This document shows positions 7,400 through 27,531 of a stretch of DNA of 64,000 bases, in pieces. The notes beneath the pieces are model-generated. The model saw only the letters and a list, made by a program, of their open reading frames with translations. It had not been told where the DNA came from and ran no database searches. The stretch's first letter is position 1. Each line of letters starts with the position of its first letter. A program made the position numbers and the translations under genes. Location of the stretch: NCBI GenBank assembly GCA_947465495.1, contig CANIAS010000002.1, positions 14,274-78,273 of the forward strand, written 5' to 3'. This DNA comes from Candidatus Pollutiaquabacter sp. (GTDB lineage Bacteria; Bacteroidota; Bacteroidia; AKYH767-A; 2013-40CM-41-45).

Positions 7400-7427
7400 C
7401 GCGTGCTTTTATAAATCTTTAAATTGA

Positions 7428-7631: not shown

Positions 7632-7836
7632 GACGAGTTTCTTTTTAACAATAATATAGTGACTCCCTTTAACCCATCATGACGAATATCAGTAAGTACA
7701 ATGAATTTGATCAATTTTATTTGTGAACTACATGTAATACTGTTAAAAAAAAACTGTAAACATCATGCATACATCTTGATATCGCTCATAAAATAATAAG
7801 CGTGCAAAGCATAGTTTTACAAAAAATATAATTAAA

Positions 7837-8061: not shown

Positions 8062-8069
8062 ATTAAATA

Positions 8070-8814: not shown

Positions 8815-8818
8815 TAGT

Positions 8819-9433: not shown

Positions 9434-9450
9434 CGCTTAATACGTTTAAA

Positions 9451-9660
9451 TCACGTTCGGGGCAAGGTTGACCCGCCAAACAACGTGTATAATGGGCAAA
9501 AGGAGATAAAGCTCGTAAGCAATAACACTCCTGCTAGGACAATAAGTATAACTCCCAAAACACCAGTGACAAAATTCGACAAATACAAAGAAGCTAATAT
9601 AGCCGCTAAAAAAATTCGCAAGAAGCGATCGGTTGATCCCATGTTCTTTTTCATAGTCAT
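9451..9660 (-). CDS. DUF2892 (YgaP-like) small inner-membrane protein
   Basis: 69 aa. MGSTDRFLRIFLAAIL followed by two helices matches the DUF2892 pattern. Confidence 0.7.
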   Translation of the reverse strand: MTMKKNMGSTDRFLRIFLAAILASLYLSNFVTGVLGVILIVLAGVLLLTSFISFCPLYTLFGGSTLPRT

Positions 9661-9727
9661 TCAATTTTCTCACAATCTACAATGTGCCAGAATCCATAAG
9701 TATGACCTAAATCAGTAAATATGTAGA

Positions 9728-10999
9728 TTAACCAAAAACTACCACTCCTATCAATGCTACTGCAGCTGCGGTCATTACCAGTAATGTAATCGCGCCAAAA
9801 ATATTAGACCACCGCCTATTGGTATATCTACCCATGATCGTTGAGTTATTACAGATAAGAAGAACAATTGCAATAATTACGGGTGAAGTCAAACCATATA
9901 GTACAGCAGTGTAAAGCAAAGATTGCACAGGTGATATCCCAATAAAGTTAATTAATAACGCAACGCTTACAGAGCAAATCATCACAACATAAAATCCTCG
10001 AGCTTCATGAAACTTTTTATTCAGTCCTTCGGCCCAACCGAATGTTTCTGAAGTTATATAGGAAAGCGAACCTGCCAATACAGGTATTGCTAAGAATCCT
10101 GTTCCCAGAATTCCTATTGCGAACAACCAATACGCCGAACGTCCAGCCAATGGCAGCAATGCTCTTGCCGCTTGCTCTACCGTGGTTATTTCCGTAAGTC
10201 CGACTGGATGCAAAAGTGCTCCGGTTGAAAGCATAATAAAGAACATTACTAAACAAGAAAAGAGCATACCAAAATCAACATCAGTACGCATATCTGATAA
10301 AATCCGCTTGTCAATAATGAGTTGATACTGCTCCTTCTCTTCCACCTCCATGCTGGTTTGCCAAAAAAACATGTAGGGGGAAATGGTTGTACCCAATACG
10401 CCCACCAGAATTAACAAGTAATCGCGACTAAAGTGCAATTCGGGTATAAAAGTCATTTTAACGACATCGTTCCAATTCACATGTGCTAAAAATGGCACAA
10501 TAATATAGGCTAACAAGGCTACGCAAAGCCATTTCATGATCCCTGCTAATTTCCGATACGGAAGATAAATTATCGTTACTAATAATAACATGGTAAAGAA
10601 GACCGAAAAGAATGCAGGATGAACAGAGGGCACCAAAAGATTTGCAACGGCTCCCATTCCTGCTATATCAGCACCAATGTTCAACGTAATTGCAGGAAAA
10701 CTAAATGCAATCATTACATAAAGCAGTGACTTAGAATAATGTTTTTTCAAAACGCCTGTTAAACCCGTACTTGTGACTAAGCCAATACGAGCGCACATTT
10801 CTTGCATGGACGCCATTAACGGAAAAGTCAACCAAGCGGTCCAAAGTGTTCCGTAGCCAAAAGCAGCACCTGCCTGACTATACGTAGCTATGCCAGAAGG
10901 ATCATCGTCACTTGCACCAGTAATTAAACCCGGCCCTAGCTTTTTCCAGAACCCCTTCGCATCCTGCTTTTTCGTAGTTCCATTCGCTTCCATTATCAA
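9728..10999 (-). CDS. mntH: NRAMP-family divalent metal (Mn2+/Fe2+) transporter
   Basis: 423 aa polytopic. The NRAMP signature GPGLITGASDDDPSGIATYSQAGA is present. Confidence 0.9.
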   Translation of the reverse strand: MIMEANGTTKKQDAKGFWKKLGPGLITGASDDDPSGIATYSQAGAAFGYGTLWTAWLTFPLMASMQEMCARIGLVTSTGLTGVLKKHYSKSLLYVMIAFSFPAITLNIGADIAGMGAVANLLVPSVHPAFFSVFFTMLLLVTIIYLPYRKLAGIMKWLCVALLAYIIVPFLAHVNWNDVVKMTFIPELHFSRDYLLILVGVLGTTISPYMFFWQTSMEVEEKEQYQLIIDKRILSDMRTDVDFGMLFSCLVMFFIMLSTGALLHPVGLTEITTVEQAARALLPLAGRSAYWLFAIGILGTGFLAIPVLAGSLSYITSETFGWAEGLNKKFHEARGFYVVMICSVSVALLINFIGISPVQSLLYTAVLYGLTSPVIIAIVLLICNNSTIMGRYTNRRWSNIFGAITLLVMTAAAVALIGVVVFG

Positions 11000-11158
11000 T
11001 GCATCGCAGTGCGCACCATTTTTTAAAATAATTATTATGTGTCAATATTACTTAATTATACTATTCAATAAATTTTCAAAACCATGATATTCATCATATC
11101 GACACCGCGGCCGTTGCCTAATTTTAACATGAAATACCAATTACTTTAAAATATTGAT

Positions 11159-11965
11159 TTGGTCTATATGTCTCCATTTTCGCTTAATGTCTCCAAAATT
11201 TTCCGTTCCTCCTGGAATAATTTCTTTGAAGAAGTTGGAGCTACTGCGCAATTTGCTGCTGATTTTTCCAAGCAATTATTTTTTCCGCCTTATGAGACAA
11301 AAGAAACGATCAAACAATGCTATGAAATTGGCTATCGTTCCTTTCCATTGGTTGCTATTACCTCTTTCATTATCGGACTTGTTCTGACGCTGCAATCCAG
11401 GCCAACACTCATCGAATTTGGAGCAGAAGCTTGGCTTCCGTCCATGGTTGGAATCTCTATTATTCGCGAAATAGGACCAGTGATTACCGCGCTTATATGT
11501 GCCGGTAAAATTGGATCAAGCATTGGAGCCGAGCTCGGTTCAATGCGTGTCACAGAGCAAATCGACGCGATGGAAGTTTCAGGAACAAATCCATTCAAAT
11601 ACATAGCAGTCACGCGCATGATCGCAACTACGCTGATGGTACCGGTTTTGGTTGTGCTAGGAGATGCTATTGCCTTGTATGGATCCTACCTTGCCGTAAA
11701 CTTAAAGAGCACGATTACCCTGAAGCTTTATTTCAATCAGGTTTTTGAATCCTCGGATTTTAGCGATGCCATTCCATCCATTATAAAATCTTATTTCTTC
11801 GGTTTTGCAATCGGTTTAACGGGATGTTATAAAGGGTACAATTCCAGAAAAGGAACAGAAGGAGTTGGACGATCAGCAAATAGCGCAGTTGTGGTATCAT
11901 CACTGCTCATTTTTATTATTGACCTCATTGCGGTTCAAATCACGGAATTCCTTGGTCTTATATGA
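11159..11965 (+). CDS. mlaE: MlaE-family ABC transporter permease
   Basis: 268 aa. The MlaE/YrbE pattern (REIGPVITALICAGKIGSSIGAELGSMRVTEQIDAMEV) is present. Confidence 0.85.
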   Translation: MVYMSPFSLNVSKIFRSSWNNFFEEVGATAQFAADFSKQLFFPPYETKETIKQCYEIGYRSFPLVAITSFIIGLVLTLQSRPTLIEFGAEAWLPSMVGISIIREIGPVITALICAGKIGSSIGAELGSMRVTEQIDAMEVSGTNPFKYIAVTRMIATTLMVPVLVVLGDAIALYGSYLAVNLKSTITLKLYFNQVFESSDFSDAIPSIIKSYFFGFAIGLTGCYKGYNSRKGTEGVGRSANSAVVVSSLLIFIIDLIAVQITEFLGLI

Positions 11966-11975
11966 AAAAGAAATA

Positions 11976-12722
11976 ATGTCCACCGAACCCATCATAGAAG
12001 TAATCCATCTTAAAAAATCATTTGGCAAAAACCAGGTAATGACCAATTTCAACCTAACCGTTGTTCGGGGTGAAAACGTGGTGGTGCTAGGGCGATCGGG
12101 ATGCGGCAAATCGGTCCTGATCAAATGTATAGTGGGATTACTGCCCTATGATGAAGGATCAATTCGAATTTTTGGCAAAGAAATATGCACTTTGCCGAAG
12201 CAGGAACTGGATCAACTTCGTGCACGTATAGGTTTCGTCTTCCAAAGTAGCGCACTTTATGACAGCATGACCGTTGGTGAAAACCTGGAATTCCCGCTAA
12301 TCAGACATCAAAAAGACAAAAGTAAATCTGAGATCCAGCGCATGGTGCAAGAAACTCTTGCCAACGTTGGGCTAGCGCACGCCATTAATTTAATGCCCGC
12401 TGAATTATCTGGAGGAATGAGAAAAAGAATTGGCCTTGCGAGAGCGCTGGTATTAAAACCTGAAATAATCCTCTACGATGAACCAACGACAGGACTTGAT
12501 CCTATTACTGCTAAGGAAATCAGTCAACTAATGCTACAGTTACAACGCACCTACAATACCACCTCAATTATCATCTCCCACGATATGAACTGTTCACGTT
12601 TGACAGCAAACCGAATGTGCGTGATGATTGATGGCATTAACCACGCAGAAGGAACGTTCGAAAGTTTAAGTACTTCGTTGGACACAAAAGTCAACTCCTT
12701 CTTTGAACAAACCCAGGCATGA
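11976..12722 (+). CDS. mlaF: ABC transporter ATP-binding protein (MlaF-like)
   Basis: It has Walker A GRSGCGKS, the signature LSGGMRKR and Walker B ILYDEPTTGLD. The start is chosen at the ATG at 11976 (MSTEPIIEV...) rather than the overlapping upstream start in the track. Confidence 0.85.
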   Translation: MSTEPIIEVIHLKKSFGKNQVMTNFNLTVVRGENVVVLGRSGCGKSVLIKCIVGLLPYDEGSIRIFGKEICTLPKQELDQLRARIGFVFQSSALYDSMTVGENLEFPLIRHQKDKSKSEIQRMVQETLANVGLAHAINLMPAELSGGMRKRIGLARALVLKPEIILYDEPTTGLDPITAKEISQLMLQLQRTYNTTSIIISHDMNCSRLTANRMCVMIDGINHAEGTFESLSTSLDTKVNSFFEQTQA

Positions 12723-13684
12723 ATACAACCACCAACCATCGCATCAAGTTAGGGATGTTCCTTTTCACTGGCTCTATTTTACTAGTGGTAGGATTATATA
12801 TGATTGGAAAGAACAAAAGCTTGTTTGGAAGTTCTTATACACTAATCGCACATTTTGATCAAATCAGCGGTTTACAGCCGGGCAACAACATCCGGTATTC
12901 AGGAATTGATATCGGCACAGTAGAGGATATTCAATTACTAAACGATACCACCATCGAAGTAACCATGACTATTGCAAAAAAAATGGCTGTGATAATTCGA
13001 ACCAATTCCATTGCTTCCATTGGCACAGATGGATTAATGGGTAACAAGCTTATTAATATAGAACCTGGAACTGTCTCGAGTCCCATGGCCCAGGAGGGAG
13101 AAATACTTCCAAGCATAAAATCTGTGGATACCGAAGCAATGCTTAGGACACTCCAATCAACTAACACCAATGTAGAAAGGATATCAACCGACCTGATGGA
13201 ATTGACCATGACGATTAACAAGAGTAGGGGCACCCTTTACACCATGCTACTGGACACCAACCTAGCCCTAGGTTTAGAAAATACACTTTCCAATGTCGAA
13301 AAAATCAGCATCCACTTAAATAGCTTTTCATCGGGACTAGCAAAAATGAGCAGTGACATACAGCACGGGAAAGGCGCCATAGGAGCACTTCTGAATGATA
13401 CTGGCTCTGTGGTGTTAGATCTTGAGCAAACGATGCGAAATTTACATTCTTCCAGTGAGAAAATTGATAAAACCGCAACATCACTAAACAGTTTAATGCA
13501 AGAAGCAAAAGAAGGCCATGGAAGCCTTACTGTAATCCTACGCGACACTGTAACTGCCAATCATTTAAAACGCGCGTTAGAATACATTGACTCTAGTGCT
13601 TATAATTTAAATTTAAACATGGAAGCATTAAAACATACTTTTCTCATGCGAAACTACTTCAAGAAGTCCAAATCAAACCAATAA
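12719..13684 (+). CDS. mlaD: MCE/MlaD-family substrate-binding protein
   Basis: 321 aa. An N-terminal TM helix is followed by an MCE domain (GLQPGNNIRYSGIDIGTVEDI). It overlaps mlaF by 4 nt. Confidence 0.85.
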   Translation: MNTTTNHRIKLGMFLFTGSILLVVGLYMIGKNKSLFGSSYTLIAHFDQISGLQPGNNIRYSGIDIGTVEDIQLLNDTTIEVTMTIAKKMAVIIRTNSIASIGTDGLMGNKLINIEPGTVSSPMAQEGEILPSIKSVDTEAMLRTLQSTNTNVERISTDLMELTMTINKSRGTLYTMLLDTNLALGLENTLSNVEKISIHLNSFSSGLAKMSSDIQHGKGAIGALLNDTGSVVLDLEQTMRNLHSSSEKIDKTATSLNSLMQEAKEGHGSLTVILRDTVTANHLKRALEYIDSSAYNLNLNMEALKHTFLMRNYFKKSKSNQ

Positions 13685-13721
13685 ATAGAAGACTTCAACC
13701 TTTTAGGCACTATACTCAATT

Positions 13722-14774
13722 ATGAACTCCTCCGTAAAAATAACGCCAACCCTCAAACTCCTTCAGTTAATTGTATTTGCCAGTATCATACTATACTTTG
13801 GGAAGCCGATTTTTGTACCAATTAGCTTTTCCTTGTTGATAAGCTTCATACTCTACCCAATATGCCAAGCTCTTGAAAAAAAAGGTGTTCCTAGAGGATT
13901 AGCAATCGGATTCAATTTGCTATGGCTAAGCGCACTATTAGGACTAATCGTTTATCTCTTATTCTATCAATTCGGAAGGTTCATAAACGACTGGCCCGCA
14001 TTGAAACAAAAATTATCATTTGCTTATCATGAATTACAACATTACATATTTATAAAGACCGGCGTAACCTTACCAGAACAAGACAACTGGCTAAAACAAA
14101 CTATATCGCAATCATCAGGCAATGTGTTTAAATTCTTAAAGACGTTTATATACAATGCAGCCATCAACGTTGTGCTATTAATTCTTATACCTATACTGTC
14201 AGGATTAATTCTATATTCTAGAGAACGGTGGGTAAAAGTACTTTATATGTTGTTGCCAAATCTTGAACACCAAGAAATCAGAAACATCCTAAAAGAATCT
14301 ATCCACGCCTACTATAATTTCATCAAAGGAATGGGCACCGTATACATTGTGGTGGCAATTCTAAACTGTATTGGCTTAATCATCCTTGGAATACCACATG
14401 CCATTCTATTTGGATGCATCGCCTCTGTCCTCACATTCATACCGTACGTCGGCATCCTTGTTGCCTCCTTGTTACCAATTACAATTTCATGGCTAACTTT
14501 CGACTCCATCTGGTATCCCATAGGTGTTATCGTGATCTTTACAATAGTCCAGTACCTAGAAGCGAATGTGATCTTTCCTTTGGCAGTTAGTAGCCGACTC
14601 AGTTTAAACACCTTTATCACCATTGTTGTGATTTTAGTTGGTGGATTACTTTGGGGTGCAGCTGGCATGATCTTATTTATTCCATTCATCGGAATAATAA
14701 AGCTAATTGCCGATCGAAGCGAAAAACTCGCAGGCCTTTCGATGCTACTTGGGAACGGAAAAATTCATCCATGA
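13722..14774 (+). CDS. AI-2E family (PerM/YhhT-like) transporter
   Basis: 350 aa with about 8 TM helices and the typical AI-2E topology. Conserved FIPYVG and LLWGAAGMILFIPF segments are present. Confidence 0.75.
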   Translation: MNSSVKITPTLKLLQLIVFASIILYFGKPIFVPISFSLLISFILYPICQALEKKGVPRGLAIGFNLLWLSALLGLIVYLLFYQFGRFINDWPALKQKLSFAYHELQHYIFIKTGVTLPEQDNWLKQTISQSSGNVFKFLKTFIYNAAINVVLLILIPILSGLILYSRERWVKVLYMLLPNLEHQEIRNILKESIHAYYNFIKGMGTVYIVVAILNCIGLIILGIPHAILFGCIASVLTFIPYVGILVASLLPITISWLTFDSIWYPIGVIVIFTIVQYLEANVIFPLAVSSRLSLNTFITIVVILVGGLLWGAAGMILFIPFIGIIKLIADRSEKLAGLSMLLGNGKIHP

Positions 14775-14776
14775 AA

Positions 14777-15547
14777 TTATCGGAATTGGCTTTGAGGAAT
14801 TGAACCCACCCGTTCCATATATTTGGAGGCAAAGTCATATCCGACTTTAAAAATATCCTCCATATCTACTTTATCAAAAACACCAAATCGACACAAGTCA
14901 GGAGGCTCAAGGTATAAATCGCATAATTTCTTACGCGCTTTGACGGTCTGCCAAGCACCCAGGGACATCAATCGATCCATTAAGGCAAAGGCAGTATTAA
15001 CAGATCGTCCTTTGACCCATGGATTTACATGCACTCCTACCAACGTTACATCTTCTTCGAGAAAAGGCTCCACCGGTAAGTTATTAAGTACTCCGCCATC
15101 TACCAATTGATTTCCATCAATCAAAACAGGTTCGAACAACACTGGGATGGATGAAGAAGCTAGCAGTGGCCGGATCAATTCTCCTGCCGTAAAAAAATCG
15201 GAATGACCTTGAGTGAGATCGCTGCTGGAAACAATTAAAGGGAAATTCAATCGTTCAAATCTATTATCGGGGAAATAATCTAACAACACATTGCCTAATT
15301 TCTCCAATGTCATTACCGGATGACCATTTTGAGGTTGTAGCAGTTGAAACAGATCTCGTTTTATAAGAATTTGCAGAATTTCATCAGGTGTATATCCTCC
15401 CGCCAAAAAAGCACCTGCTACCGCTCCGCTACTAACACCAGAAATCGCCTCTAGCACCATTCCCCGTTGTTGCAGTGCTTTCACTACTCCCAAATGTGCC
15501 ACTCCACGGACACCACCGCCAGATAGTACTAGATTTATAGGTTGCAT
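14777..15547 (-). CDS. Patatin-like phospholipase
   Basis: The oxyanion hole LVLSGGGVRG, the serine lipase motif GVSSG and a downstream DGG are all present. 256 aa. Confidence 0.9.
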   Translation of the reverse strand: MQPINLVLSGGGVRGVAHLGVVKALQQRGMVLEAISGVSSGAVAGAFLAGGYTPDEILQILIKRDLFQLLQPQNGHPVMTLEKLGNVLLDYFPDNRFERLNFPLIVSSSDLTQGHSDFFTAGELIRPLLASSSIPVLFEPVLIDGNQLVDGGVLNNLPVEPFLEEDVTLVGVHVNPWVKGRSVNTAFALMDRLMSLGAWQTVKARKKLCDLYLEPPDLCRFGVFDKVDMEDIFKVGYDFASKYMERVGSIPQSQFR

Positions 15548-15556
15548 AAGCTGAAA

Positions 15557-16672
15557 TTAGGCATGAAGTGCAACGGTTGCATGCTTTCGCAAGGACTGCC
15601 GATAAGAAACGAATTCCATAATATTTTCAAAATCGAGATATCCCTTAAAAGAACCATTTTCTTTGACCAGTAGCAGAGCAGTTTGATCTGCTTGCATGGA
15701 AGCAAATACCTTTTCCAACGGATCATCGGCTTCAGCTGTTTGAATGCCACGTCTCATACAGGTCTCCACAAAGACATCCTGTCCATGCAAACCTATTTCT
15801 TCAAACAATAACTTACGATCAATTGTACCAACCGGTAAATCCCCCTTAAATACCACAAAACGCTCAGTTTGCGTATGTAACAATTGGTCGACCACTTCGC
15901 GAAGTGTAGAATCTGCAGCAACGGCATCCATGTTAGGCATAATGACATCCTTTACTTTGGCACCTCGCAAGAACTCACGTGATATACTCTGAGTAAGCTC
16001 CATCTGCGCTGCTAACAGAACAAAAACTCCCACAAAAGCCAAGATAGCGTTAGAATATAAACCCGATAATATCATGATCATGGCAATCAACTGACCGATC
16101 CTTACAGCTACGCGTGTAGCCTTTAGACGATCTAATCGCAAGGATAGCAGTCCATGCAAAATCCTACCGCCATCCATGGGATAAGCGGGAATTAAATTAA
16201 AAAGCGCCAGCACTACGTTTGCATAGTAAAAGTGAGCCATCCAATTCCTTATAGTGAGTTCACTCATCACAGAAAACGCTGGCACACCTGAATCAATGAA
16301 AAAGAAAACGTATATCAAAACAGCCAATATGACATTGACTAATGGTCCGGCTAAAGAAACATAAACTTCCTCTTTAGGCACATCGGGTAATCTATCCATG
16401 CGTGCCATTCCCCCAATGGGTAGCAGTACAATATCACGCGTAGTGCATCCATAACGGCGGGCCGTTAGCGCATGTCCTAACTCATGCAAGACGACGGTTG
16501 CAAATACAGCCAATACTAACAGGAATAAGAGCACTGTGGATTCGAATCCTGATTTTAAATAAGCCTGTGACAAACCCAGGTAAATGAAAAGCAACAAAAA
16601 GGTCCAATGGACATAAATGCCAATACCGAATAAACTAATCAGCCTCCACGCTCCTTTTACTGCTTGTTTCAT
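15557..16672 (-). CDS. Site-2 protease family (M50) zinc metallopeptidase with a C-terminal CBS pair
   Basis: HELGHAL (HExxH) lies in a TM helix, a second-site NLIPAYPMDGG is present, and CBS-like domains occupy the C-terminus. 371 aa. Confidence 0.85.
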   Translation of the reverse strand: MKQAVKGAWRLISLFGIGIYVHWTFLLLFIYLGLSQAYLKSGFESTVLLFLLVLAVFATVVLHELGHALTARRYGCTTRDIVLLPIGGMARMDRLPDVPKEEVYVSLAGPLVNVILAVLIYVFFFIDSGVPAFSVMSELTIRNWMAHFYYANVVLALFNLIPAYPMDGGRILHGLLSLRLDRLKATRVAVRIGQLIAMIMILSGLYSNAILAFVGVFVLLAAQMELTQSISREFLRGAKVKDVIMPNMDAVAADSTLREVVDQLLHTQTERFVVFKGDLPVGTIDRKLLFEEIGLHGQDVFVETCMRRGIQTAEADDPLEKVFASMQADQTALLLVKENGSFKGYLDFENIMEFVSYRQSLRKHATVALHA

Positions 16673-17067
16673 TTCAACGTAGTTATTTTCACAGCGAGTT
16701 TCTTTAACAAATCAAGTTCGACAGGTTGTAATCCTCTTGCTGCCACAGCTGTATCCTTCAACAAATGAAGTGATCTTTTCTTAGTTTCTTCAGAAATACG
16801 AACGCCTTTATTCTCCTTCACAAAATTGTCAAAGGAAGAAAGTATCTCGTGCGGCTTTGCATTTTTCTCAAGCATATTTTTAAAAGCAATCTTAGCAATC
16901 AGCACCTCGGCGGCAGCTTCACTATTTTCAGCGTCTTGAGGTCTCATCAACCATTCCCGGAACATGGTGTTTACCCGATTGATTTCCGCTTCTTGAATGG
17001 TGCCGTCAATTGCAGCTACTGCATATACTAACTGACCTAATTGCTCATAGAATTTTCGATGTGACAT
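16669..17067 (-). CDS. TerB-family (tellurite-resistance-like) protein
   Basis: 132 aa, all-helical. VAAIDGTIQEAEINRV matches the TerB pattern. The stop overlaps the S2P start (ATGA). Confidence 0.65.
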   Translation of the reverse strand: MSHRKFYEQLGQLVYAVAAIDGTIQEAEINRVNTMFREWLMRPQDAENSEAAAEVLIAKIAFKNMLEKNAKPHEILSSFDNFVKENKGVRISEETKKRSLHLLKDTAVAARGLQPVELDLLKKLAVKITTLK

Positions 17068-17164
17068 AGCGATGGAGTTTTAAAGGGGAGAAACCCTTAC
17101 ATCAGTATTAAATTTATTTTTGAAAACATAATTAGAATTGAAATGGGAATAAAATTGCACTCAA

Positions 17165-17998
17165 TTAAACTGTACCAGGAAAGACGATAAGCGGAAGTCT
17201 GGTGTGATATGCCATCCTTTTAGTTAAACTTCGTTCAAAGAGTTTACGCATGAATGGCCGATGTCGAATTGTCATTGCAACCATATCCGCATCCACTTCT
17301 TCCAAATAATGATTAATGGAAGAGTATACATCAGTCCCATCCAATAACTTAAAACTTATTTTACTGAAATGGCTATCTTCACGTATACTTTCCATGAATT
17401 TCTCAATGGCATCAAATTCAAATGTGCGATCGTATTTACCACTTGTAATATGAAGGAGTATGATTTCAGCTTGCAGAACGCGAGCAAAATCGATTACCTG
17501 TTCAATATTGCCAAAATCGCCTTCCTCATAACTGGTAGCAAAAACAATACGATCAATCGTCTTCTTTGTAGACAGTTCAGGAATGGCAATAACCGGACAT
17601 GTACTATGTTCAAACACGGAAGCAGTGATGGTGCCAATCAACGCTTCGCGTAAGCCAGAGGCCCCCTTCGTACCCATGATGATTAAATCTGCGGATGATT
17701 CAATGGCAGATTTTGGAATTTCATCTTCAGCGTACCCGGCCGAAGCATGAACATTGAATTTCAAGGCTGGGTACTTTTTCAAATATCGCTTACGGACATC
17801 GCCAAGCCCATCCAGTGAATTTTTCTCCAATTCTGCATCCGAAGGAATGGCTAATGGGAGATCAGTAGCATAAATTGGCGACACGTATGAATGGTGCAAG
17901 ACAATTTCAGCCTTTAACTTTAAGCTTAGCCCGCAAGCAAAATCCAATGCATGGTCAGCATCACGAGAGAAGTCGGTAGGGACCAGTATTTTTTTCAT
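17165..17998 (-). CDS. Universal stress protein, tandem UspA domains
   Basis: 277 aa. It has MKKILVPTDFSRDADHALDFA and GTKGASGLREALIGT. Confidence 0.85.
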   Translation of the reverse strand: MKKILVPTDFSRDADHALDFACGLSLKLKAEIVLHHSYVSPIYATDLPLAIPSDAELEKNSLDGLGDVRKRYLKKYPALKFNVHASAGYAEDEIPKSAIESSADLIIMGTKGASGLREALIGTITASVFEHSTCPVIAIPELSTKKTIDRIVFATSYEEGDFGNIEQVIDFARVLQAEIILLHITSGKYDRTFEFDAIEKFMESIREDSHFSKISFKLLDGTDVYSSINHYLEEVDADMVAMTIRHRPFMRKLFERSLTKRMAYHTRLPLIVFPGTV

Positions 17999-18027
17999 AT
18001 CATTATTTTCATAAGATGAAGAGCTAA

Positions 18028-19113
18028 TTAATAATACTTGACGACTGCTATTTTCTGGAAGTCAGTCAATCGACCATTGGAAACAAATTGTATGTCTCCC
18101 TTACTTCGTAATACCATCTCAATGAGATCATCGACTGCATCAGAAATATTACGGTGGGAGCCAGGAAGAAGTTGATCCACGTGAATGGACATACCATCTT
18201 CCCGGAAATAGGCTGGTTGCACATAGTCTTTTTCAACCAACAACAACCTACATTGCCCCTCCGTAACCGCACGCCAGACCTCCTCCACGCCGGCTGCGTA
18301 ACTTCCTTTACTTACCGCTGAGGCCAGCGACAAAAGGCTTTTCTCCTCTACTTCTTGGTTAACTTTATCTAAAATAGGCTCCAACAACTTTCTTAACTGC
18401 GGTGATGTAGCATGTTCGTAATTACCCTCCACAAAACCAATGGTATTGCGCTCATTAGCAGACTGAGCTTTGATGTAGCCTAAAAACTTCTTGTCGCCCA
18501 TAAAAACGATTGGCGTATCGGAATTGCCTAACGCTTGATGAACCGCATGATCTATTAGCCGCAAAAAATTTCGTATGTTTTTTTCGTTATATGCCTTCGT
18601 ATCAAGGTATTCCCATCCTGGTAATGAATGATTATTTGTTACATCAGCGATGTTATCGGGCATATCCTTGAAAACTACCGGAAAGAAGATTTTTCCATAA
18701 ACCATAGAGGTCCGCACTCCATTCTTTGTAATAGCAACCAATAAAAACTGCTTATTCAGTTTGACGGAATAGACCAAGTCACGCACTTCAAAAGAATCGT
18801 CGACAACTACTTTTTCTGTGACGTTGAATGGCAACTGAACCAATCGAGCATGATGAGGAGAAACGTAAATAGCAAGGCCTTCAGAAAGTTGGGTATAATT
18901 GATTTCGTCCACAGTATCATGTAACCTTCTCATCATCTCTTCTGTTTTTTGTTTACTGTAACGATCATGGAGTTGACTTTGCACTTGTGATACCAAATCA
19001 ATCATATGTTCTCGATCCAACTTGAAAGCAGGATATTGAGGGTGAGTTGGGACGACAATTGAAATCGCAGGAAATTCTTTTTGACCGATCAAGTCTTTTT
19101 CGAGGAGTTGCAT
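18028..19113 (-). CDS. eRF1/Pelota-like protein lacking GGQ (a bacterial baeRF-type release-factor homolog). Hypothetical.
   Basis: 361 aa. Three segments align by eye to eRF1 domains 2-3: FLLVAITKNGVRTSMVYG ~ FGFIVIDGSGALFGTL; GFVEGNYEH...KVNQEVEEKSL ~ ISYGGENGF...NVKFIQEKKL; KGSYAAGVEEVWRAVTEGQCRLLLV ~ [23 protein letters not shown]. No GGQ is present in the equivalent loop. Confidence 0.5.
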   Translation of the reverse strand: MQLLEKDLIGQKEFPAISIVVPTHPQYPAFKLDREHMIDLVSQVQSQLHDRYSKQKTEEMMRRLHDTVDEINYTQLSEGLAIYVSPHHARLVQLPFNVTEKVVVDDSFEVRDLVYSVKLNKQFLLVAITKNGVRTSMVYGKIFFPVVFKDMPDNIADVTNNHSLPGWEYLDTKAYNEKNIRNFLRLIDHAVHQALGNSDTPIVFMGDKKFLGYIKAQSANERNTIGFVEGNYEHATSPQLRKLLEPILDKVNQEVEEKSLLSLASAVSKGSYAAGVEEVWRAVTEGQCRLLLVEKDYVQPAYFREDGMSIHVDQLLPGSHRNISDAVDDLIEMVLRSKGDIQFVSNGRLTDFQKIAVVKYY

Positions 19114-19333: not shown

Positions 19334-20098
19334 ATGAAAAAGAGACTTACTATTGATTTAATTTACAACTTGGTTTTAGCAGGACTACTATCATGCATGT
19401 TGCCTGGCTGTGAAAATGACACTGTTTATCCATTATCTACTACCAGCACTCTTAAGATTAATGTTTCTAATACGGTAAATGGAACATCTTTGCAACTGGG
19501 GCAAATGGCATACACAAACGTATCAGGAAACAATTATCAAGTTGATCTGTTACGATATTACTTGTCCAATTTCTCGCTTGTGAAATCCGATAGCAACTAT
19601 TATAACCTCCGGAATTACGACTTAATAGACGCCGAAAATGCGGAAAGTTGCAAGATCACCGGCGACAACGTTCCCAACGGGAAATACACCTACCTGTGTT
19701 TTTATGTCGGTGTGGATAGCACCCATAACAATTCCATTGATCAAACCGGCGACCTAGATCCACTGTATGGTATGTTTTGGCCCTGGAATACCGGTTATAT
19801 ATTTTTTAAGCACGAAGGGTATTATGTGGACTCTTTAGGATCGACCAATAACCTACTATTCCATTATGGAACAGCGCCTGCATTGGTTACAGTGGCCATT
19901 CCTGTTAATATTGAACTATCGGGTAGCACTTGCAGCATCGATCTGCAATTTGATTTAAATTCGGTGTATAACACACCGACCCCAATTGATTTTAACGTGG
20001 ACAATTATCATCAATCTGCCTCGGGTAGCGAACGAGATTGGATTGAAACCATGAAGCAAAATCTCTCAACCGCCTTTACCATCACCGCCGTACACTAA
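19334..20098 (+). CDS. MbnP-family lipoprotein (periplasmic copper-binding partner of di-haem peroxidase MbnH). Putative.
   Basis: 254 aa. A lipoprotein signal is present with lipobox Cys (LLSCMLPGC). It lies 8 nt upstream of a di-haem cytochrome c peroxidase, which is the canonical MbnP-MbnH pairing. The assignment rests on context and size, not on verified motifs. Confidence 0.5.
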   Translation: MKKRLTIDLIYNLVLAGLLSCMLPGCENDTVYPLSTTSTLKINVSNTVNGTSLQLGQMAYTNVSGNNYQVDLLRYYLSNFSLVKSDSNYYNLRNYDLIDAENAESCKITGDNVPNGKYTYLCFYVGVDSTHNNSIDQTGDLDPLYGMFWPWNTGYIFFKHEGYYVDSLGSTNNLLFHYGTAPALVTVAIPVNIELSGSTCSIDLQFDLNSVYNTPTPIDFNVDNYHQSASGSERDWIETMKQNLSTAFTITAVH

Positions 20099-20105
20099 TT
20101 TCAAC

Positions 20106-21155
20106 ATGGACTTTCGCAGGGTACTCTTTTTAATAGCATCGATCTACTTAGTCATAGTGGCATGCAACAAAGACGAAGTAGAATCCGTCAGTAACGGCCC
20201 TACGCCATATCAGCTTAGTATTCCGTCATCGCTGCCACCGATGAATATTCCAGGATCAAATCCACTGACCGTGGAAGGCATCGCACTCGGAAGAAAATTG
20301 TTTTACGACCCATTATTATCGGGCAACAATATCCAATCTTGTGGAGACTGCCATAATCAGGCATTCGGCTTTACAGACAACAATTTTGCACTCAGTACTG
20401 GGATTGATGGAATCGATGGAACTAGAAATTCGATGCCGCTGTTTAATTTAGGATATGCTTCTAATTTCTTTTGGGACGGTGGTGCCACCACGCTTGAATC
20501 GCAAGTTGTAGGACCGATTACCAATCCGATTGAGATGCACGAAGACCTTACCAATTGTGTCAACGAGCTTAAATCGCAACCAGACTACCCGGCTCTATTC
20601 AAAGCTGCCTTTCAAACTGATTCGATTACGATTTCTATGGTAATGAAAGCCATTGCCCAATTCGAACGCACCCTGATTTCGGGCAGCTCAAAATACGATC
20701 AGTCAGTAAAAGGACAGGTCGCGTTGACTTCTCAAGAAGAGAGCGGAAAGCTAGTATTCCTCTCTGCCGCAAAAGGCGATTGCACCCACTGCCACATTTT
20801 AGGCAGCACCTTCACCGATTTTGCCTACAAGAATAATGGATTAGATTCTATTTCAGCGGACAGTGGCCGGGCTCGTATTACACTCAACCCAACTGACCTC
20901 GGTAAATTCAAAACACCTAGTTTACGTAACATCGCGGTAACTCCACCCTACATGCACGATGGTCGATTTTCTACCTTGCAACAGGTGATAGAGCACTACA
21001 ATACCGGTTTTCATTACGCAGCCAATCTAGATCCAAATCTTCAAAATGCAGTGAAAGGTCGAATGAGCCCCCAGGAGATTAGTGATCTGATTGCTTTTTT
21101 AATGACCTTGACCGATACCGATTTTCTGTCCAATCCTGCTTACGGACATCCGTAA
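20106..21155 (+). CDS. Di-haem cytochrome c peroxidase (CCP/MauG/MbnH family)
   Basis: 349 aa. There are two CxxCH haem motifs (CGDCHNQAF and CTHCHIL) and the conserved MauG/CCP segment PSLRNIAVTPPYMHDG. Confidence 0.85.
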   Translation: MDFRRVLFLIASIYLVIVACNKDEVESVSNGPTPYQLSIPSSLPPMNIPGSNPLTVEGIALGRKLFYDPLLSGNNIQSCGDCHNQAFGFTDNNFALSTGIDGIDGTRNSMPLFNLGYASNFFWDGGATTLESQVVGPITNPIEMHEDLTNCVNELKSQPDYPALFKAAFQTDSITISMVMKAIAQFERTLISGSSKYDQSVKGQVALTSQEESGKLVFLSAAKGDCTHCHILGSTFTDFAYKNNGLDSISADSGRARITLNPTDLGKFKTPSLRNIAVTPPYMHDGRFSTLQQVIEHYNTGFHYAANLDPNLQNAVKGRMSPQEISDLIAFLMTLTDTDFLSNPAYGHP

Positions 21156-21239
21156 TTATCAATTTTTCTTCTGTTAAAAGCTCCCTATTAACTCCAGGAG
21201 CTTTTTACTATATTTCGAGTTGTTAAACATACCCTGTCC

Positions 21240-23576
21240 ATGAAAAAACACCTATTGTTGCTAGTTGTGCTGTTTTTGATCCAATCACAAAGCTACGCAG
21301 CCTGTCAGACTGGTTACACTGAGGTCATCGTTCAGATTATTCCTGACAGTTGGCCGAATGAGATTTCCTGGCAACTCAGTGAATCCGGAGGAAACATCCT
21401 TCAGAGTGGAACTTCAGAAGGAGATACACTGTGTGTGCCTGTCGGATCCTGTCTGGAGTTTGTCATCAACGACAGCTATGGCGATGGAATTTACGCTCCA
21501 GGCGGTTATTGGCTTTACGTTGATGGCATTCAAGTTGCGACTGGCTACAACTACGGCTCGCAGGATATGGTAGCTCTGAATTGTCCGCCCGGCATGCATT
21601 GCACATCGCCATTAGAAATTACCTACGGTACCCATTGGGCAACCTTCGAAGACACGTGGTTTGTATATACGGCTGACTCATCTGGCACCTATAACTTAAC
21701 CACCTGCGATAGCAACAGCTGCAACACACAACTTTGGTTATACACCAGTTGCCCGACCCTTCCTTATACGGATGGACCGATGGGATCCTACATCTACAAC
21801 GACGATAATAATTGCGGTACCCAAGCCAGTATGAATTTCACCCTGGTAGCTGGAACTACGTACCTCATTCGTATTGGCGACAACGGAGGCGACTGCTCCG
21901 ATTCAATCAATTTTAGCTTCTCTTATTTCGGACCAGTCATGGGTTGTATGGACCCCTCGGCCTGCAATTTCAACCCGCTGGCTACAGTATCCGACAATTC
22001 ATGTATTTATTACCCAAATCCGATGTGTCAAGGCCCTGACCTTCAGTTTGACTCACTGTCGTTCATCAATAGCATCTCCTTACAAACCTTCAGCGCATCT
22101 ACATGCGACGTAGCCGAAGGATGTGTGACTGGATATGGTACACGATACGTATTGTCCTTTACTTCCAAAATTAACAACATAGGGACTCAGGATTATTACA
22201 TTGGAACACCCTCGTCTCAACCAGGCATGTTCAATACCAATAATTGTCACGGACATGCACACTACGAAGGGTACGGCGACTATCGACTGTACGATTCCTT
22301 GGGAACCATTGTACCGGCAGGCCATAAAAACGGCTACTGTGTGATGGACTTATGCGGTATGGGCCAATACAACTGTGGCGACATGGGCATTTCAGCAGGA
22401 TGCTATGATGTGTATGGCGCCGGCACACAATGCCAGTGGATCGACATCACCGACGTAGCAGATGGCGACTATCGCTTGGCCATCCTCATCAATTCCCAAC
22501 ACCTCCCGGATGCGTTGGGTCATTACGAAACCAATCATCTCAACAACGCCCTTCAGATTTGCATTCGAATTACGCATAACGCACAAGGTGTTCCTAGCTA
22601 CTCTATACTTCCAAATTGTACTCCTTACGTCGATTGCAACGGAGTACCAGGAGGAGTATCAGAAACAGATTGCAATGGAATTTGTGGCGGACCTTCTGTA
22701 TACGGTGACCTTAATTCGGATGCCTTATTGAACACAGCAGATATTACTAGTTACATGGATCAAGTAGAATCCCAATTCTCTGCTACAACGTGTAATGATC
22801 TGAACGGAGACGGAGAGCTAACCATATTCGATGTAGCACAATCAAATTGGTGTTATTACGGCAATCCGAATATTCAAGGCGGCACTCACAATCATTGCCA
22901 ATTTCCGCGCAACCTAATTAGCTTCACTGACACTTCCGAATTGAGTATAGTCGCATTCGATCCTATTAACAACTACATTGATGTTGGCTTGAAAAATCCG
23001 CGCGTAGGGATCAAAGGATACCAATTTACGGTGAGTGGCATCGATGTGTTTTCTTACATCAGCATGATCAACCCATTGCAATTCCAGGCAGACGTGCGAT
23101 ACATTCCTGCTACCCATGAGGTCATTGCATTTGGCCTGAACGACTCCACGATTCCTAGATCTACATTACCACGTCCATTGATCCGTCTGTTCTACAACAA
23201 TGTAACAGATACAGTGGTTTGTATCAGTTCGATTTCTGACATCATGAACGAACGTGGGGAAGGTACCATACCCGCACTCGCAAACAACTGTCGCAGTTTC
23301 AGCACAACCAATGTAAGTTCCCTGTACAAAAACGCTGCACTGATGGTGGTTCCAAATCCTGCGAAGGACGAAGCTTACTTACACATATCAGAAGGATTCA
23401 ATCCGGGTGCTACCATCATGATGGTCGACATAACTGGAAAACAATTCCAAGTTTCTGTAGCGCAATTGCGAAAAGATTGGGTGAAATTAGACTTGAAGGA
23501 ACTTCCAAATGGAGTTTATATGATTCGAATTCTGGATGGCGATTATGCCGGTACAGCGCGAGTTGTAAAACTCTAA
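21240..23576 (+). CDS. Secreted multidomain protein with a lysyl-oxidase-like copper amine oxidase catalytic domain, dockerin-like Ca-binding repeats and a T9SS C-terminal sorting domain
   Basis: 778 aa with a signal peptide. The LOX copper/LTQ core is [18 protein letters not shown] (vs human LOX CHQHYHSMDEFSHYD), [10 protein letters not shown] (vs GHKASFCLED) and [27 protein letters not shown] (vs [27 protein letters not shown]). The dockerin-like repeats are [13 protein letters not shown] and [13 protein letters not shown]. The T9SS CTD is [14 protein letters not shown]...GVYMIRI...RVVKL. Confidence 0.8.
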   Translation: [778 protein letters not shown]

Positions 23577-24495: not shown

Positions 24496-24571
<76 letters not shown>

Positions 24572-24613
24572 AGTTAGAGATCCCTCGTACCAGCGGGGGA
24601 TTTTCTTTTAAAT

Positions 24614-24698
24614 GCCCGGATGGTGGAACTGGTAGACACGAGGGACTTAAAATCCCTTGGCCATTGCGGCCGTGCAGGTTCGATTCCTGTTCCGGGTA
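24614..24698 (+). tRNA. tRNA-Leu (anticodon TAA), type II with a long variable arm
   Basis: The acceptor is gcccgga/tccgggt, the anticodon stem aggga/tccct with loop ctTAAaa, followed by a long variable arm and a T-arm gcagg-ttcgattc-cctgt. CCA is not encoded. Confidence 0.8.
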
Positions 24699-24741
24699 CT
24701 TTAATATAGAGGTGAAGTTTGCTCTTCCAGAGCCTTCACAC

Positions 24742-27531
24742 CTACTTACCTCCTATCACCTTTTTAATTTCGTTCAGCATATTTAAGGCCTGAACAGGTG
24801 TTAGGTTGTCCAAATCAGCTTTCAAAATTTGTTCCCGTACTTGTTCTAGTACCGGATCATCCAACTGAAAAAAGCTCAATTGAAAATCCGGGTCACTAGC
24901 TGCTTTCTTTTTACTTCCAGCAGCACTGGTCGATGACAACTTACCAGCAGTAGCTGAATTCGTCGAAGCGCTGGCTGAGCTGGTCGAAGCGCTGGCTGAG
25001 CTGGTCGAAGCGCTGGCTGAGCTGGTCGAAGCGCTGGCTGAGCTGGTCGAAGCCCGACTTGCCTCCAACTGTTTCAAAATCTCACTCGCACGCTGCACCA
25101 CTTTTATCGGGATGCCCGCCATCTTCGCAACATGTATTCCGAAACTATGCTCGCTCCCACCCGGCACTAACTTTCGCAAGAATAAAACATTCGTACCTGT
25201 CTCTTTGACTGCTACGTGAAAATTACGGATTCGCTGCATCTCAGTAGCCATCTCATTCAGTTCATGATAATGAGTAGCAAAGAGGGTTTTCGCGCTGACA
25301 GTAGGATGTTCATGAATATACTCGGCAATCGACCAGGCGATGCTAATTCCGTCGTAGGTGGCTGTGCCTCGTCCTATTTCATCCAATAAGACCAGACTAC
25401 GATCAGACAAATTATGAAGAATACTGGCGGTCTCATTCATCTCCACCATAAAGGTCGACTCCCCGGAAGAGATATTGTCGGATGCGCCAACACGAGTAAA
25501 AATCTTGTCGACGATTCCAATGCGAGCTGAAGTTGCCGGGACGAAACTTCCCACTTGCGCCATCAAGGTAATTAAAGCGGTCTGCCGCAATAAAGCCGAC
25601 TTACCAGACATATTGGGTCCAGTGATCATGAGCACCTGCTGCACATCAGGATCCAGGTAGATGTCATTAGCGACAAACTTCTCTCCTATTGGCAGCTGTC
25701 TCTCAATTACTGGATGACGACCATCCTTAATGTCAATGATACGTCCTTCATTTATTTCAGGACGTACGTACCCTGATCGTGTAGCGGTTGAAGAGAACGA
25801 TTGCAGTACATCCATGCGTGACAATAAAGCGGCATTCAGCTGCACGGGCTGTATATATTCCAACAATGCGACCATTAAATCAGCAAACAAACGCTCCTCG
25901 ATGGCCAAAATCTTCTCCTCTGCTCCGAGTATCTTCTCTTCGTACTCTTTTAGTTCCGCGGTGATATAGCGTTCGGCGTTTGTCAATGTCTGCTTACGGA
26001 TCCACTCCAAAGGAACCTTGTCTTTGTGTGTATGTGTCACTTCAATGTAATACCCGAAAACATTGTTGAAGCCTACTTTCAAGGATGTAATCCCGGTACG
26101 TTCCGCTTCACGTTGCTGTATTTTCAGTAAGACATCCTTACCATGGAAGGCTATGGCGCGTAACTCATCTAGCTCATGATGGACACCGGACCGAATCACA
26201 CCTCCTTTATGGACAAGTGCAGGAGCTTCCGGGTCCAATTCGCGTACTATCCGTTCGCGCATGATTTGACATGAGTTAAGCTGATCACCAATCATCCGCA
26301 AGGAGTCCCGGTCACTGTTTAGCAGCTGTTCACGTATCCGTTCAGTCATTTCCAATGAACGTCGAAGTTGCAAGACATCTCTTGGAGATACTTTGCCAAG
26401 TGCGACCTTAGAAATCAACCGTTCCAAGTCGCCAACCTGCTTCAACGAATCAACAAGCGTTGCCGTGAACTCATCGTTTTTCAATAAATAATCTACAGCA
26501 TCCAACCGCTCCTCTATCGCTGTACGCTCCTTGAGTGGAAGCATGATCCAACGTTTCATCAGTCGTGCGCCCATCGGAGTGACCGTCTGATCGAGAACAT
26601 CGACCAGCGTAACAGCGTTCTCATTGGACGAGCCGACCAATTCAAGATTTCGTATGGTAAACTTGTCAAGCCATACATACCGATCTTCTTCCAACCTTGA
26701 AATCGCGGTGATGTGCTTCAATTGATCTTGACGTGTGTCTGAAACATAATGAAGCGCAGCTCCAGCAGCAACAATGGCAGCTGGGAATTCTTCGACACCA
26801 AAACCTTTCAATGATTTGGTACCGAAATGGCGCAATAACAATTCGCGTGTATAATCGGGTTGAAACACCCATTCATCGACTGCGTAATTATAAAACCTAG
26901 TGCCTATCCGATCTTGTAAGTCCTTCTTTTGAACACGGGAGAAAATAACCTCCGTTGGTTGAAAATTCTGCAAGAGCTTTTCCACGTAATCCATGGATCC
27001 TTGAGCTGCATAAAATTCACCGGTTGAAATGTCTACAAAAGAAACGCCAGCCACTTTCCCGTCTACATGCAGTGAGGCCAGGTAATTGTTTTTTTTATGC
27101 TCAAGAATTTTGTCGTTGTATGAAACCCCGGGTGTTACAAATTCTGTCACTCCCCTTTTAACGATTTTCTTGGTCAATTTAGGGTCTTCCAGCTGATCGC
27201 AGATAGCTACTCGCATTCCTGCACGCACCAACTTAGGCAGATACGTATCCAATGAATGGTGCGGAAATCCGGCTAACTCAATAAATGTAGCTGATCCATT
27301 GGCACGACGGGTAAGGACGATTCCAAGGATGGAGGACGCCTTCACTGCGTCCTCGCCAAAGGTCTCGTAGAAATCACCCACCCGAAACAATAATAAGGCG
27401 TCCGGATACTTCGCCTTGATGCCGTAGTATTGTTTCATGAGCGGAGTTTCCACTACCGCATTTTTTGTCTCTTCTTTCAACAAGATTTTTCGCTTCTTTG
27501 TCACTGGAAACCCAGTATGCGCAAGATACAA
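24742..27531 (-). CDS. mutS: DNA mismatch repair protein MutS with a C-terminal (ASASTSS)n low-complexity insert
   Basis: 929 aa. It has the N-terminal mismatch-binding domain PLMKQYYGIKAKYPDALLLFRVGDFYETF, Walker A GPNMSGKS and the HTH region. The true start is probably downstream of 27531 (GTG at 27504 or ATG at 27438), because 27517-27531 overlaps the divergent TrmH-family gene. Confidence 0.9.
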   Translation of the reverse strand: MYLAHTGFPVTKKRKILLKEETKNAVVETPLMKQYYGIKAKYPDALLLFRVGDFYETFGEDAVKASSILGIVLTRRANGSATFIELAGFPHHSLDTYLPKLVRAGMRVAICDQLEDPKLTKKIVKRGVTEFVTPGVSYNDKILEHKKNNYLASLHVDGKVAGVSFVDISTGEFYAAQGSMDYVEKLLQNFQPTEVIFSRVQKKDLQDRIGTRFYNYAVDEWVFQPDYTRELLLRHFGTKSLKGFGVEEFPAAIVAAGAALHYVSDTRQDQLKHITAISRLEEDRYVWLDKFTIRNLELVGSSNENAVTLVDVLDQTVTPMGARLMKRWIMLPLKERTAIEERLDAVDYLLKNDEFTATLVDSLKQVGDLERLISKVALGKVSPRDVLQLRRSLEMTERIREQLLNSDRDSLRMIGDQLNSCQIMRERIVRELDPEAPALVHKGGVIRSGVHHELDELRAIAFHGKDVLLKIQQREAERTGITSLKVGFNNVFGYYIEVTHTHKDKVPLEWIRKQTLTNAERYITAELKEYEEKILGAEEKILAIEERLFADLMVALLEYIQPVQLNAALLSRMDVLQSFSSTATRSGYVRPEINEGRIIDIKDGRHPVIERQLPIGEKFVANDIYLDPDVQQVLMITGPNMSGKSALLRQTALITLMAQVGSFVPATSARIGIVDKIFTRVGASDNISSGESTFMVEMNETASILHNLSDRSLVLLDEIGRGTATYDGISIAWSIAEYIHEHPTVSAKTLFATHYHELNEMATEMQRIRNFHVAVKETGTNVLFLRKLVPGGSEHSFGIHVAKMAGIPIKVVQRASEILKQLEASRASTSSASASTSSASASTSSASASTSSASASTNSATAGKLSSTSAAGSKKKAASDPDFQLSFFQLDDPVLEQVREQILKADLDNLTPVQALNMLNEIKKVIGGK

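Follow-up and report, generated by a model that had tools for sequence, protein, structure and literature searches.

A LOX-family gene next to an MbnP-MbnH pair

In the 64,000-nucleotide stretch of contig CANIAS010000002.1 from Candidatus Pollutiaquabacter sp. analyzed here (the whole stretch is called the window below), a gene of the lysyl oxidase (LOX) family is located at positions 21240..23576 of the forward strand, directly downstream of genes for an MbnP-family protein and an MbnH-like di-haem peroxidase. It starts with ATG, encodes 778 aa and is the sole long open reading frame (ORF) listed at that place. The Pfam profile Lysyl_oxidase (PF01186) matches aa 296-438 of the product (profile positions 46-188 of 204) with E=4.8e-24 and 85.6 bits against a cut-off of 20.4, and a phmmer search of all PDB sequences returned a single match, human LOXL2 (5ZE3; E=4.3e-18). 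An AlphaFold2 (AF2) model of the protein, calculated from a 65-sequence alignment, has a mean predicted local distance difference test score (pLDDT) of 81.7 and contains the LOX catalytic-domain fold. An earlier note on this DNA, written from the sequence alone, had read a LOX-like catalytic domain at about 21990-22620, i.e., aa 251-460, and had proposed Pfam searches for PF01186 and Por_Secre_tail; the segment is indeed the catalytic domain, both families match above their cut-offs, and the LOX observation, which lies far beyond chance, is confirmed.

The catalytic domain (aa 263-462; 22026..22625, forward strand) contains ten conserved Cys, the predicted copper ligands H337/H339/H341 and, as predicted precursors of lysine tyrosylquinone (LTQ), K363 and Y392. 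For comparison with LOXL2, the 457-residue chain of 5ZE3 was taken to be LOXL2 residues 318-774, the deposited construct, which the chain length fits; chain position plus 317 then gives LOXL2 numbering. In the alignment, H337/H339/H341 stand opposite H626/H628/H630, K363 opposite K653 and Y392 opposite Y689, with the motif CHGHAH opposite CHRHYH and GHKNGYC opposite GHKASFC; six Cys are aligned as well. We take it as established by the structure paper that the three LOXL2 histidines are the copper ligands and that K653 and Y689 are the LTQ precursors. The same roles are echoed in the description of an archaeal LOX (PMC6452851). Across the 65 aligned orthologs, which are 45-68% identical overall, all five catalytic residues are invariant (65/65); eight of the ten Cys are likewise invariant, and the other two are kept in 63-64 sequences. 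Retention of this catalytic set and Cys framework at such overall identity speaks for a working enzyme rather than a relic, and the reading of a LOX-family domain whose copper and LTQ residues are all intact is supported.

The copper-ligand histidines, whose loss in a proper alignment the earlier note had named as grounds for abandoning the LOX reading, are thus all in place. Its description of the sequence as near-identical to animal LOX applies to one 20-residue block only, since overall identity to LOXL2 is about 29%. That the LOX-like domain has kept the fold only and acts as a non-catalytic structural or adhesive module is very improbable: the protein is rich in binding-type modules and its catalytic activity is a prediction, but near-complete invariance of the five residues and the Cys framework at this level of divergence is the signature of selection on catalysis.

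Module organization and export of the LOX protein

Several further modules surround the catalytic domain; all are encoded on the forward strand, and their boundaries are our estimates. A Sec signal peptide (aa 1-20; 21240..21299) was read from the sequence together with its putative cleavage site; the model has a helix at aa 3-14, and orthologs share this N-terminus. It is followed by two β-sandwiches. The first (aa 22-115; 21303..21584) carries a DSYGDGI motif and has model strands within aa 26-113; in the alignments it is missing from the 682-aa proteins of the L067 clade, a Flavobacteriales group considered below, and doubled in P0118. The second (aa 116-232; 21585..21935) is probably similar to PPC, or collagen-binding, domains. 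No Pfam or PDB profile matches the N-terminal domains better than E=0.13; at least one of the two sandwiches resembles the collagen-binding/PPC domain of clostridial collagenases, and this is probably sandwich 2. Between sandwich 2 and the LOX domain lies a short Cys motif (aa 233-262; 21936..22025) with the pattern GC[MT]DPxACN[YF]NPLA..D.SC, in which C236, C242 and C255 are invariant in the 65 sequences and for which no family match was found.

Downstream of the LOX domain, a Cys-rich linker (aa 463-488; 22626..22703), with D465, C466, C478 and C482 invariant in the same alignment, leads into a dockerin-like module (aa 489-541; 22704..22862). Two loops of the dockerin calcium-binding type, D-x-N-x-D-x6-D, occur at aa 490-501 and 520-531, and in the AF2 model each is followed by a helix (aa 499-510 and 529-541). 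Loop 2 is conserved (D520 and D531 in 65/65), while loop 1 is partly degenerate, with Asn at its third position in just 13 of 65 sequences. When a family profile of aa 463-700 was compared with the PDB, dockerins made up 10 of the 13 weak matches (best E=0.013); Pfam Dockerin_1 (PF00404) scores below threshold (E=0.074; 13.7 bits against a cut-off of 22.9). The dockerin-like calcium-binding repeats of the earlier note therefore stand as two loops, each with its helix, but not as a Pfam family assignment. The following module (aa 553-690; 22896..23309) is a β-sandwich with the cohesin jelly-roll fold, for which aa 550-700 gave no Pfam or PDB sequence match. This cohesin-like module is supported as an addition to those in the earlier note.

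The protein ends in a type A C-terminal sorting domain (CTD) of the type IX secretion system (T9SS) at aa 700-778 (23337..23573). Por_Secre_tail (PF18962) matches aa 705-769 with E=2.1e-8 and 34.7 bits against a cut-off of 27, NCBIfam TIGR04183 scores 30.8 bits against 23, and the domain has fold matches to T9SS CTDs. With a Sec signal peptide at one end and a CTD above both Pfam and NCBIfam cut-offs at the other, the protein has the signals of predicted T9SS cargo, and the T9SS CTD of the earlier note is borne out. The window encodes two more T9SS cargo proteins, both with Por_Secre_tail: an FG-GAP repeat protein (42787-45039, reverse strand) and a 1172-aa Ig_7 (CHU_C-associated) protein (51459-54977, forward strand). 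The LOX relatives come from Bacteroidota metagenome-assembled genomes (MAGs); no core T9SS gene was seen in the window, where none was searched for.

Distribution of the LOX family

A search of 5.8 billion proteins with the LOX protein returned 734 matches. Nearly all of the best 120 of these are full-length orthologs of 770-806 aa with 40-68% identity, from Bacteroidota MAGs and metagenomes, and several among them carry the NCBI name "lysyl oxidase family protein". Counted as clusters (90% identity), the near-full-length orthologs number more than 120. The isolated LOX domain, compared with 1.84 billion cluster representatives (50% identity), matched 2461 at E<=1e-3, 1346 at E<=1e-10 and 245 at E<=1e-30; among the matches listed, many have the same layout of approximately 780-810 aa, and some reach 1000-2284 aa. 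In a scan of one genome per species, at least 572 loci encode relatives. The window gene is thus a further member of a large, already annotated Bacteroidota LOX family. The statement of the earlier note that LOX-domain proteins are rare in bacteria is overstated in view of the 1346 clusters, the loci just counted and the earlier report by Grau-Bove et al. (2015; PMC4448552) of LOX in five bacterial phyla, Bacteroidetes among them; LOX domains in bacteria are uncommon, yet not rare. Nearly all prokaryotic LOX proteins known at the time of that survey consisted of the LOX domain alone (PMC4448552). The family itself is known and annotated; none of the papers searched discusses its multi-module architecture, which also differs from what the 2015 survey described.

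The upstream MbnP-MbnH pair

The MbnP-family gene (19334..20098, forward strand) encodes a protein with a lipobox and a WPW (WxW) motif, which matches PF20243 with E=1.8e-40 and 139 bits against a cut-off of 27; its score with TIGR04052, 44 bits, is below the cut-off of 140. Residues M147, W149, W151 and H177 are invariant across two divergent clades. After a gap of 7 nt follows the gene for an MbnH-like di-haem peroxidase of the MauG/CcP family (20106..21155, forward strand), which has a lipoprotein-type N-terminus and matches CCP_MauG with E=7e-58. Its best NCBIfam match is TIGR04039, the MbnH family, at 252 bits (below the cut-off of 363), and in the PDB it matches 6E1C best (E=1.9e-50), followed by canonical peroxidases (1e-42) and MauG (~1e-28). 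6E1C, which is listed in the PDB table simply as "Di-heme enzyme", is MbnH of Methylosinus trichosporium OB3b. MbnH is known to convert a Trp of the MbnP WxW motif into kynurenine, which together with His and Met forms a copper site (PMC11951088). Given PF20243, the WxW motif and an MbnH-like di-haem gene directly after, it is reasonable to regard the two genes as a putative periplasmic copper-handling pair, as the earlier note did. An attempt to map the MbnP copper ligands by alignment to 7L6G gave E=1.8 with an 8-sequence profile and was unusable. Both genes are treated here as neighbors of LOX, from which the MbnH-like gene is separated by 84 nt; the three genes are co-directional, with opposite-strand genes on both flanks.

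Transcription signals upstream of the LOX gene

In the MbnH-LOX spacer, a terminator-like hairpin is located at 21176-21205 (forward strand): a 9-bp stem formed by AAAAGCTCC and GGAGCTTTT encloses a 12-nt loop, is followed by a T-run and may act as a terminator. The 90-nt intergenic stretch that includes it has a dG of -15.2 kcal/mol (z=-3.2), and the spacers of L001, L002 and L005, three loci of the same clade, have predicted hairpins at the equivalent position. The Bacteroidetes -7 promoter element is TAnnTTTG; a promoter-like box that resembles it, TATATTTC, lies at 21209..21216 on the forward strand, 31 nt upstream of the start codon of LOX. Each of the six members of the window clade has a TAnnTTTC box ahead of LOX, at a distance of 25-46 nt, and a TAnnTTT[CG] box is present upstream of LOX in 29 of 72 loci, irrespective of the upstream gene. 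A scan of the spacer for sigma-70 and terminator consensus sequences gave nothing meaningful, because the hairpin loop is longer than 8 nt and Bacteroidota promoters are not covered by such a scan. Since a hairpin with a T-run follows MbnH and a promoter-like box precedes LOX, these motifs suggest that LOX is transcribed alone, from a promoter that serves this one gene.

Conservation of the gene neighborhood

The context of the LOX gene was compared across 81 loci (the window and 80 loci fetched from genomes, with flanks of up to 10 kb on each side), and that of MbnP across nine diverse Bacteroidota homologs that are 39-48% identical. An MbnP-MbnH pair (MbnPH) directly upstream of LOX occurs only in the window clade, i.e., in the window and, in identical arrangement, in L001-L005, whose LOX proteins are 62-72% identical. 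In this clade the baeRF, Usp, PNP and MutS neighborhood is syntenic as well, so the MbnPH-LOX adjacency is simply inherited with the entire neighborhood. Approximately 60 loci, with LOX proteins of 40-57% identity, have no MbnP or MbnH within the available sequence. Clustering of ORFs over the 81 loci yielded no candidate for a conserved operon partner, as no cluster was present in more than 17 of them; the genes that flank LOX are either of the housekeeping kind or particular to a clade (DUF3089, a beta-lactamase-family hydrolase, thioredoxin-like DUF255, DnaK and others).

The two gene groups meet once more in a Flavobacteriales MAG clade (L067-L075; e.g., L067 10001-19398), where MbnP and two tandem MbnH genes are located 4.5 kb downstream of LOX, beyond an aminopeptidase gene and an opposite-strand gene for a 1040-aa helicase-like protein. 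In this clade, a CxxCxxCC-domain gene follows the tandem MbnH-like genes. In a neighbor-joining tree of 70 LOX proteins, the window clade and the L067-L075 clade are far apart, and the two MbnPH juxtapositions are therefore separate.

From the side of MbnP, the picture is one of a pair without a fixed partner. A CCP_MauG gene is located immediately downstream of MbnP in all nine diverse loci, while LOX was found within 7 kb of MbnP in none of the nine. An opposite-strand block consisting of an M50/CBS protease, tandem Usp and baeRF_family3 genes lies upstream of MbnPH in the window (14777-19113), in L001/L004 and in the distant locus L085. The presence of this block in L085 too makes the MbnPH pair, rather than LOX, its syntenic partner. 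In L085 (3266-6420), the M50-Usp-baeRF-MbnP-MbnH series is as in the window and is followed by unrelated genes without LOX; LOX therefore sits at a synteny break. Elsewhere, exported copper proteins of other kinds are found beside the pair. In L083 (CP096135.1, a Sphingobacteriales MAG; 7001-14539), MbnP-MbnH is followed by five same-strand T9SS-tagged genes, one of which encodes a multicopper oxidase (Cu-oxidase_2/3 with Por_Secre_tail), and copper-related genes (DUF305, DUF3347, HMA/MauE, HMBD, DUF8199) lie on both sides. In L091 (JANQUG010000029.1; 1048-7183), the pair is divergent from genes for two large Cu-binding_MopE-domain proteins, one with a T9SS CTD. MbnPH is an autonomous two-gene module, repeatedly but irregularly located beside exported copper proteins, and its position next to LOX is a lineage-specific juxtaposition and no conserved operon.

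These comparisons bear on the suggestion of the earlier note that LOX and the upstream pair make up a unit of copper delivery and cuproenzyme. In such a unit, MbnP, matured by MbnH to carry its kynurenine copper site, would hand copper to LOX while the latter folds in the periplasm before T9SS export. The tight co-directional spacing with opposite-strand flanks, its repetition in L001-L005 and the second, distant clade speak for the proposal (with two such clades among about 15, P is ~1% if a genome has 1-3 pairs, a rough post hoc estimate), as do the multicopper oxidase and MopE-domain neighbors of other MbnPH pairs and the ability of MbnP to bind copper through His, Met and MbnH-made kynurenine (PMC11951088). 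However, the adjacency is limited to the clade of the window itself; the pair is missing from about 60 LOX loci and LOX from all nine MbnPH loci; L085 shares the upstream synteny yet lacks LOX; the pair of the L067 clade is parted from LOX by the helicase-like gene; the MbnH-LOX spacer holds both a hairpin with a T-run and a promoter-like box of its own; and free Cu2+ suffices to activate a prokaryotic LOX. We consider a copper-delivery unit unlikely on this balance. A role of MbnP in supplying copper to LOX is possible, but conserved linkage does not point to it.

A second link between the neighbors would make MbnH a MauG-like maturase that acts on the quinone cofactor of LOX, or on another cross-link in it, instead of on MbnP. 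MbnH belongs to the MauG/CcP family, in which MauG builds the tryptophan tryptophylquinone of methylamine dehydrogenase (PMC11951088); MauG structures are matched at E ~1e-28, and the next gene downstream encodes a quinoprotein. Set against the pairing of MbnH with MbnP, its known substrate (PMC11951088), in 9/9 loci, the autocatalytic formation of LTQ with copper and O2, and the lack of such a neighbor beside most LOX orthologs, this idea is scarcely credible.

Two further neighbors of LOX were observed in other clades. In L010 (7063-9854), and also in L017 and L018, genes for a 105-aa His/Cys-rich protein (HxxxH, HHHCxLC) and a TonB-dependent receptor, which may be a metal-uptake pair, lie directly upstream of LOX. 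The 105-aa protein was considered as a link to the DUF8199 genes upstream of MbnP and set aside (BLASTP E ~1, no Pfam match). In approximately 12 loci of one group of clades (e.g., L034 1640-2686), a Thioredoxin_7/DUF255 gene is located just upstream of LOX, a notable neighbor because the LOX protein holds more than 30 conserved Cys.

The flanks of the window locus are of housekeeping character. Upstream, on the opposite strand, are genes for baeRF_family3, Usp, M50 protease and patatin; downstream follow PNP, tRNA-Gly(GCC) and tRNA-Leu(TAA) (24496-24699, forward strand; between PNP and MutS, about 1 kb downstream of LOX) and MutS (24742-27531, reverse strand; TTG start in the ORF list). Near its C-terminus, MutS has a Ser/Ala/Thr-rich tandem repeat, SSASAST, in about five copies. 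GC content is 0.455-0.465 over 20-28 kb, 0.40-0.41 just upstream and 0.41 at 28-30 kb, within the range of the remaining window. A genomic island or horizontal transfer was considered and rejected, as GC lies within this range, the flanks are syntenic housekeeping genes and there are no signs of mobile elements.

Proposed function of the LOX protein

Building on what was observed (the family to which the protein belongs, its conserved residues, its fold and export signals, and the synteny of its gene), we propose, with a probability of roughly 75%, that the gene encodes an exported copper-dependent amine oxidase of the LOX family, which is T9SS cargo, is targeted by its accessory modules and is expressed as a single-gene unit from its own promoter. 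Catalytic activity, self-processing of the cofactor, the substrate class, what the accessory domains do and how the genes are grouped into transcription units are the predicted elements of this proposal. The Sec signal peptide would first bring the protein into the periplasm, and the type A CTD would then direct it through the T9SS over the outer membrane, for release or for attachment to the surface. Copper has to be acquired either within the periplasm or extracellularly. If the domain works like animal LOX and HTU-LOX of the archaeon Haloterrigena turkmenica (PMC6452851), Cu(II) would be bound within aa 263-462 through H337/H339/H341, the enzyme would use copper and O2 to make its own LTQ out of K363 and Y392, and primary amines would be oxidized to aldehydes with release of NH3 and H2O2. 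Self-processing is supported by the activity of HTU-LOX after refolding with Cu2+ alone (PMC6452851), and LTQ formation is also listed as autocatalytic (PMC11951088). Lysine side chains in proteins or peptides outside the cell would be the most likely substrates; the two N-terminal sandwiches and the dockerin-like and cohesin-like modules would probably target a polymeric substrate, serve assembly with itself or with partners at the surface, or both.

Several points weigh against this proposal. To our knowledge, HTU-LOX is the only prokaryotic LOX that has been characterized biochemically, and no member of the Bacteroidota family has been. The LOXL2 crystal structure is a Zn-bound precursor, and for this reason the geometry of the mature site is not checkable on the LOX model. 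The modules are called dockerin-like and cohesin-like from sub-threshold sequence scores and fold similarity, and the placement of the PPC-like similarity on one particular N-terminal sandwich is a probable one. A literature search combining LOX with T9SS or Bacteroidetes returned no paper describing LOX as T9SS cargo. The promoter and terminator calls are made at the level of motifs, and there may be read-through from mbnPH. Finally, HTU-LOX has a relaxed specificity that includes small amines, so that the assignment of protein lysine as substrate is a guess by analogy.

This last point leads to a serious alternative, that the protein oxidizes a broad range of small amines in free form (polyamines, amino sugars, amine antibiotics), serving nitrogen scavenging or H2O2-based antagonism and not protein cross-linking. 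HTU-LOX oxidizes many small amines, aminoglycosides and polymyxin (PMC6452851), NH3 and H2O2 would be useful products for a freshwater heterotroph, and none of the genes linked to LOX in the loci compared is of a collagen-like or matrix type. The layout with PPC-like, dockerin-like and cohesin-like modules is kept over more than 100 clusters, however, which would argue for a macromolecular target or for surface assembly. A small-amine role is accordingly rated as the less probable one, although it deserves attention because of the relaxed specificity of HTU-LOX.

Going beyond the proposal of a T9SS-exported LOX with accessory-module targeting, a more speculative combination of two ideas can be formulated. 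In Bacteroidota, MbnPH could be a periplasmic copper-loading station for T9SS-bound cuproproteins (LOX in the window and the L067 clade, the multicopper oxidase of L083, the MopE-domain proteins of L091), and the adjacent dockerin-like and cohesin-like modules could allow self-assembly of the LOX enzyme at the surface of the cell. Taken jointly, the two ideas are doubtful.

Genome surveys have revealed LOX proteins in prokaryotes, whose native roles continue to be described as cryptic. Within this field, the window gene is a clean representative of a large, well-conserved Bacteroidota LOX subfamily, and its T9SS route and accessory modules point to extracellular work on a polymer or in surface assembly. 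It is a reasonable choice for the first biochemical work on a LOX from bacteria, and might also supply a soluble LOX domain for solving a structure with mature LTQ, of which the family has none so far (PMC11951088). The MbnPH link, if true, would give a testable function to the "mysterious" copper pair outside methanotrophs and would bear on how T9SS cargo obtain metals.

Comparison with known systems

The window pair was compared with MbnP/MbnH of Methylosinus trichosporium (MbnP 7L6G). The window MbnP has PF20243 and the WxW motif, and a di-haem MauG-like gene follows directly. In contrast, both window proteins score below the NCBIfam equivalog cut-offs, the similarity of MbnP to 7L6G is not significant, and there is no adjacent methanobactin operon or MbnT-type TonB transporter. 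The accessory modules recall non-cellulosomal cohesins and dockerins, such as the Archaeoglobus cohesin (2XDH) and the cohesins of C. perfringens GH84C/GH33 (2W1N, 2VO8). The LOX protein differs from these in holding both modules adjacent in one polypeptide; its modules score below the family thresholds, and loop 1 mostly lacks the canonical Asn. Compared with T9SS type A cargo such as mirolase (CTD 8QB1) and NucA (CTD 8GLK), the passenger here is a LOX-type cuproenzyme.

Among LOX proteins, HTU-LOX, which is inhibited by 3-aminopropionitrile (PMC6452851), belongs to the same domain family as the window protein. Unlike animal LOX and LOXL2, the window protein has neither SRCR domains nor an animal-type propeptide, and carries instead PPC-like sandwiches, dockerin-like and cohesin-like modules and a T9SS CTD, with no collagen or elastin involved. 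Relative to the prokaryotic LOX proteins of the 2015 survey (PMC4448552), the Bacteroidota family is distinguished by a conserved multi-module layout of approximately 780 aa with a T9SS signal.

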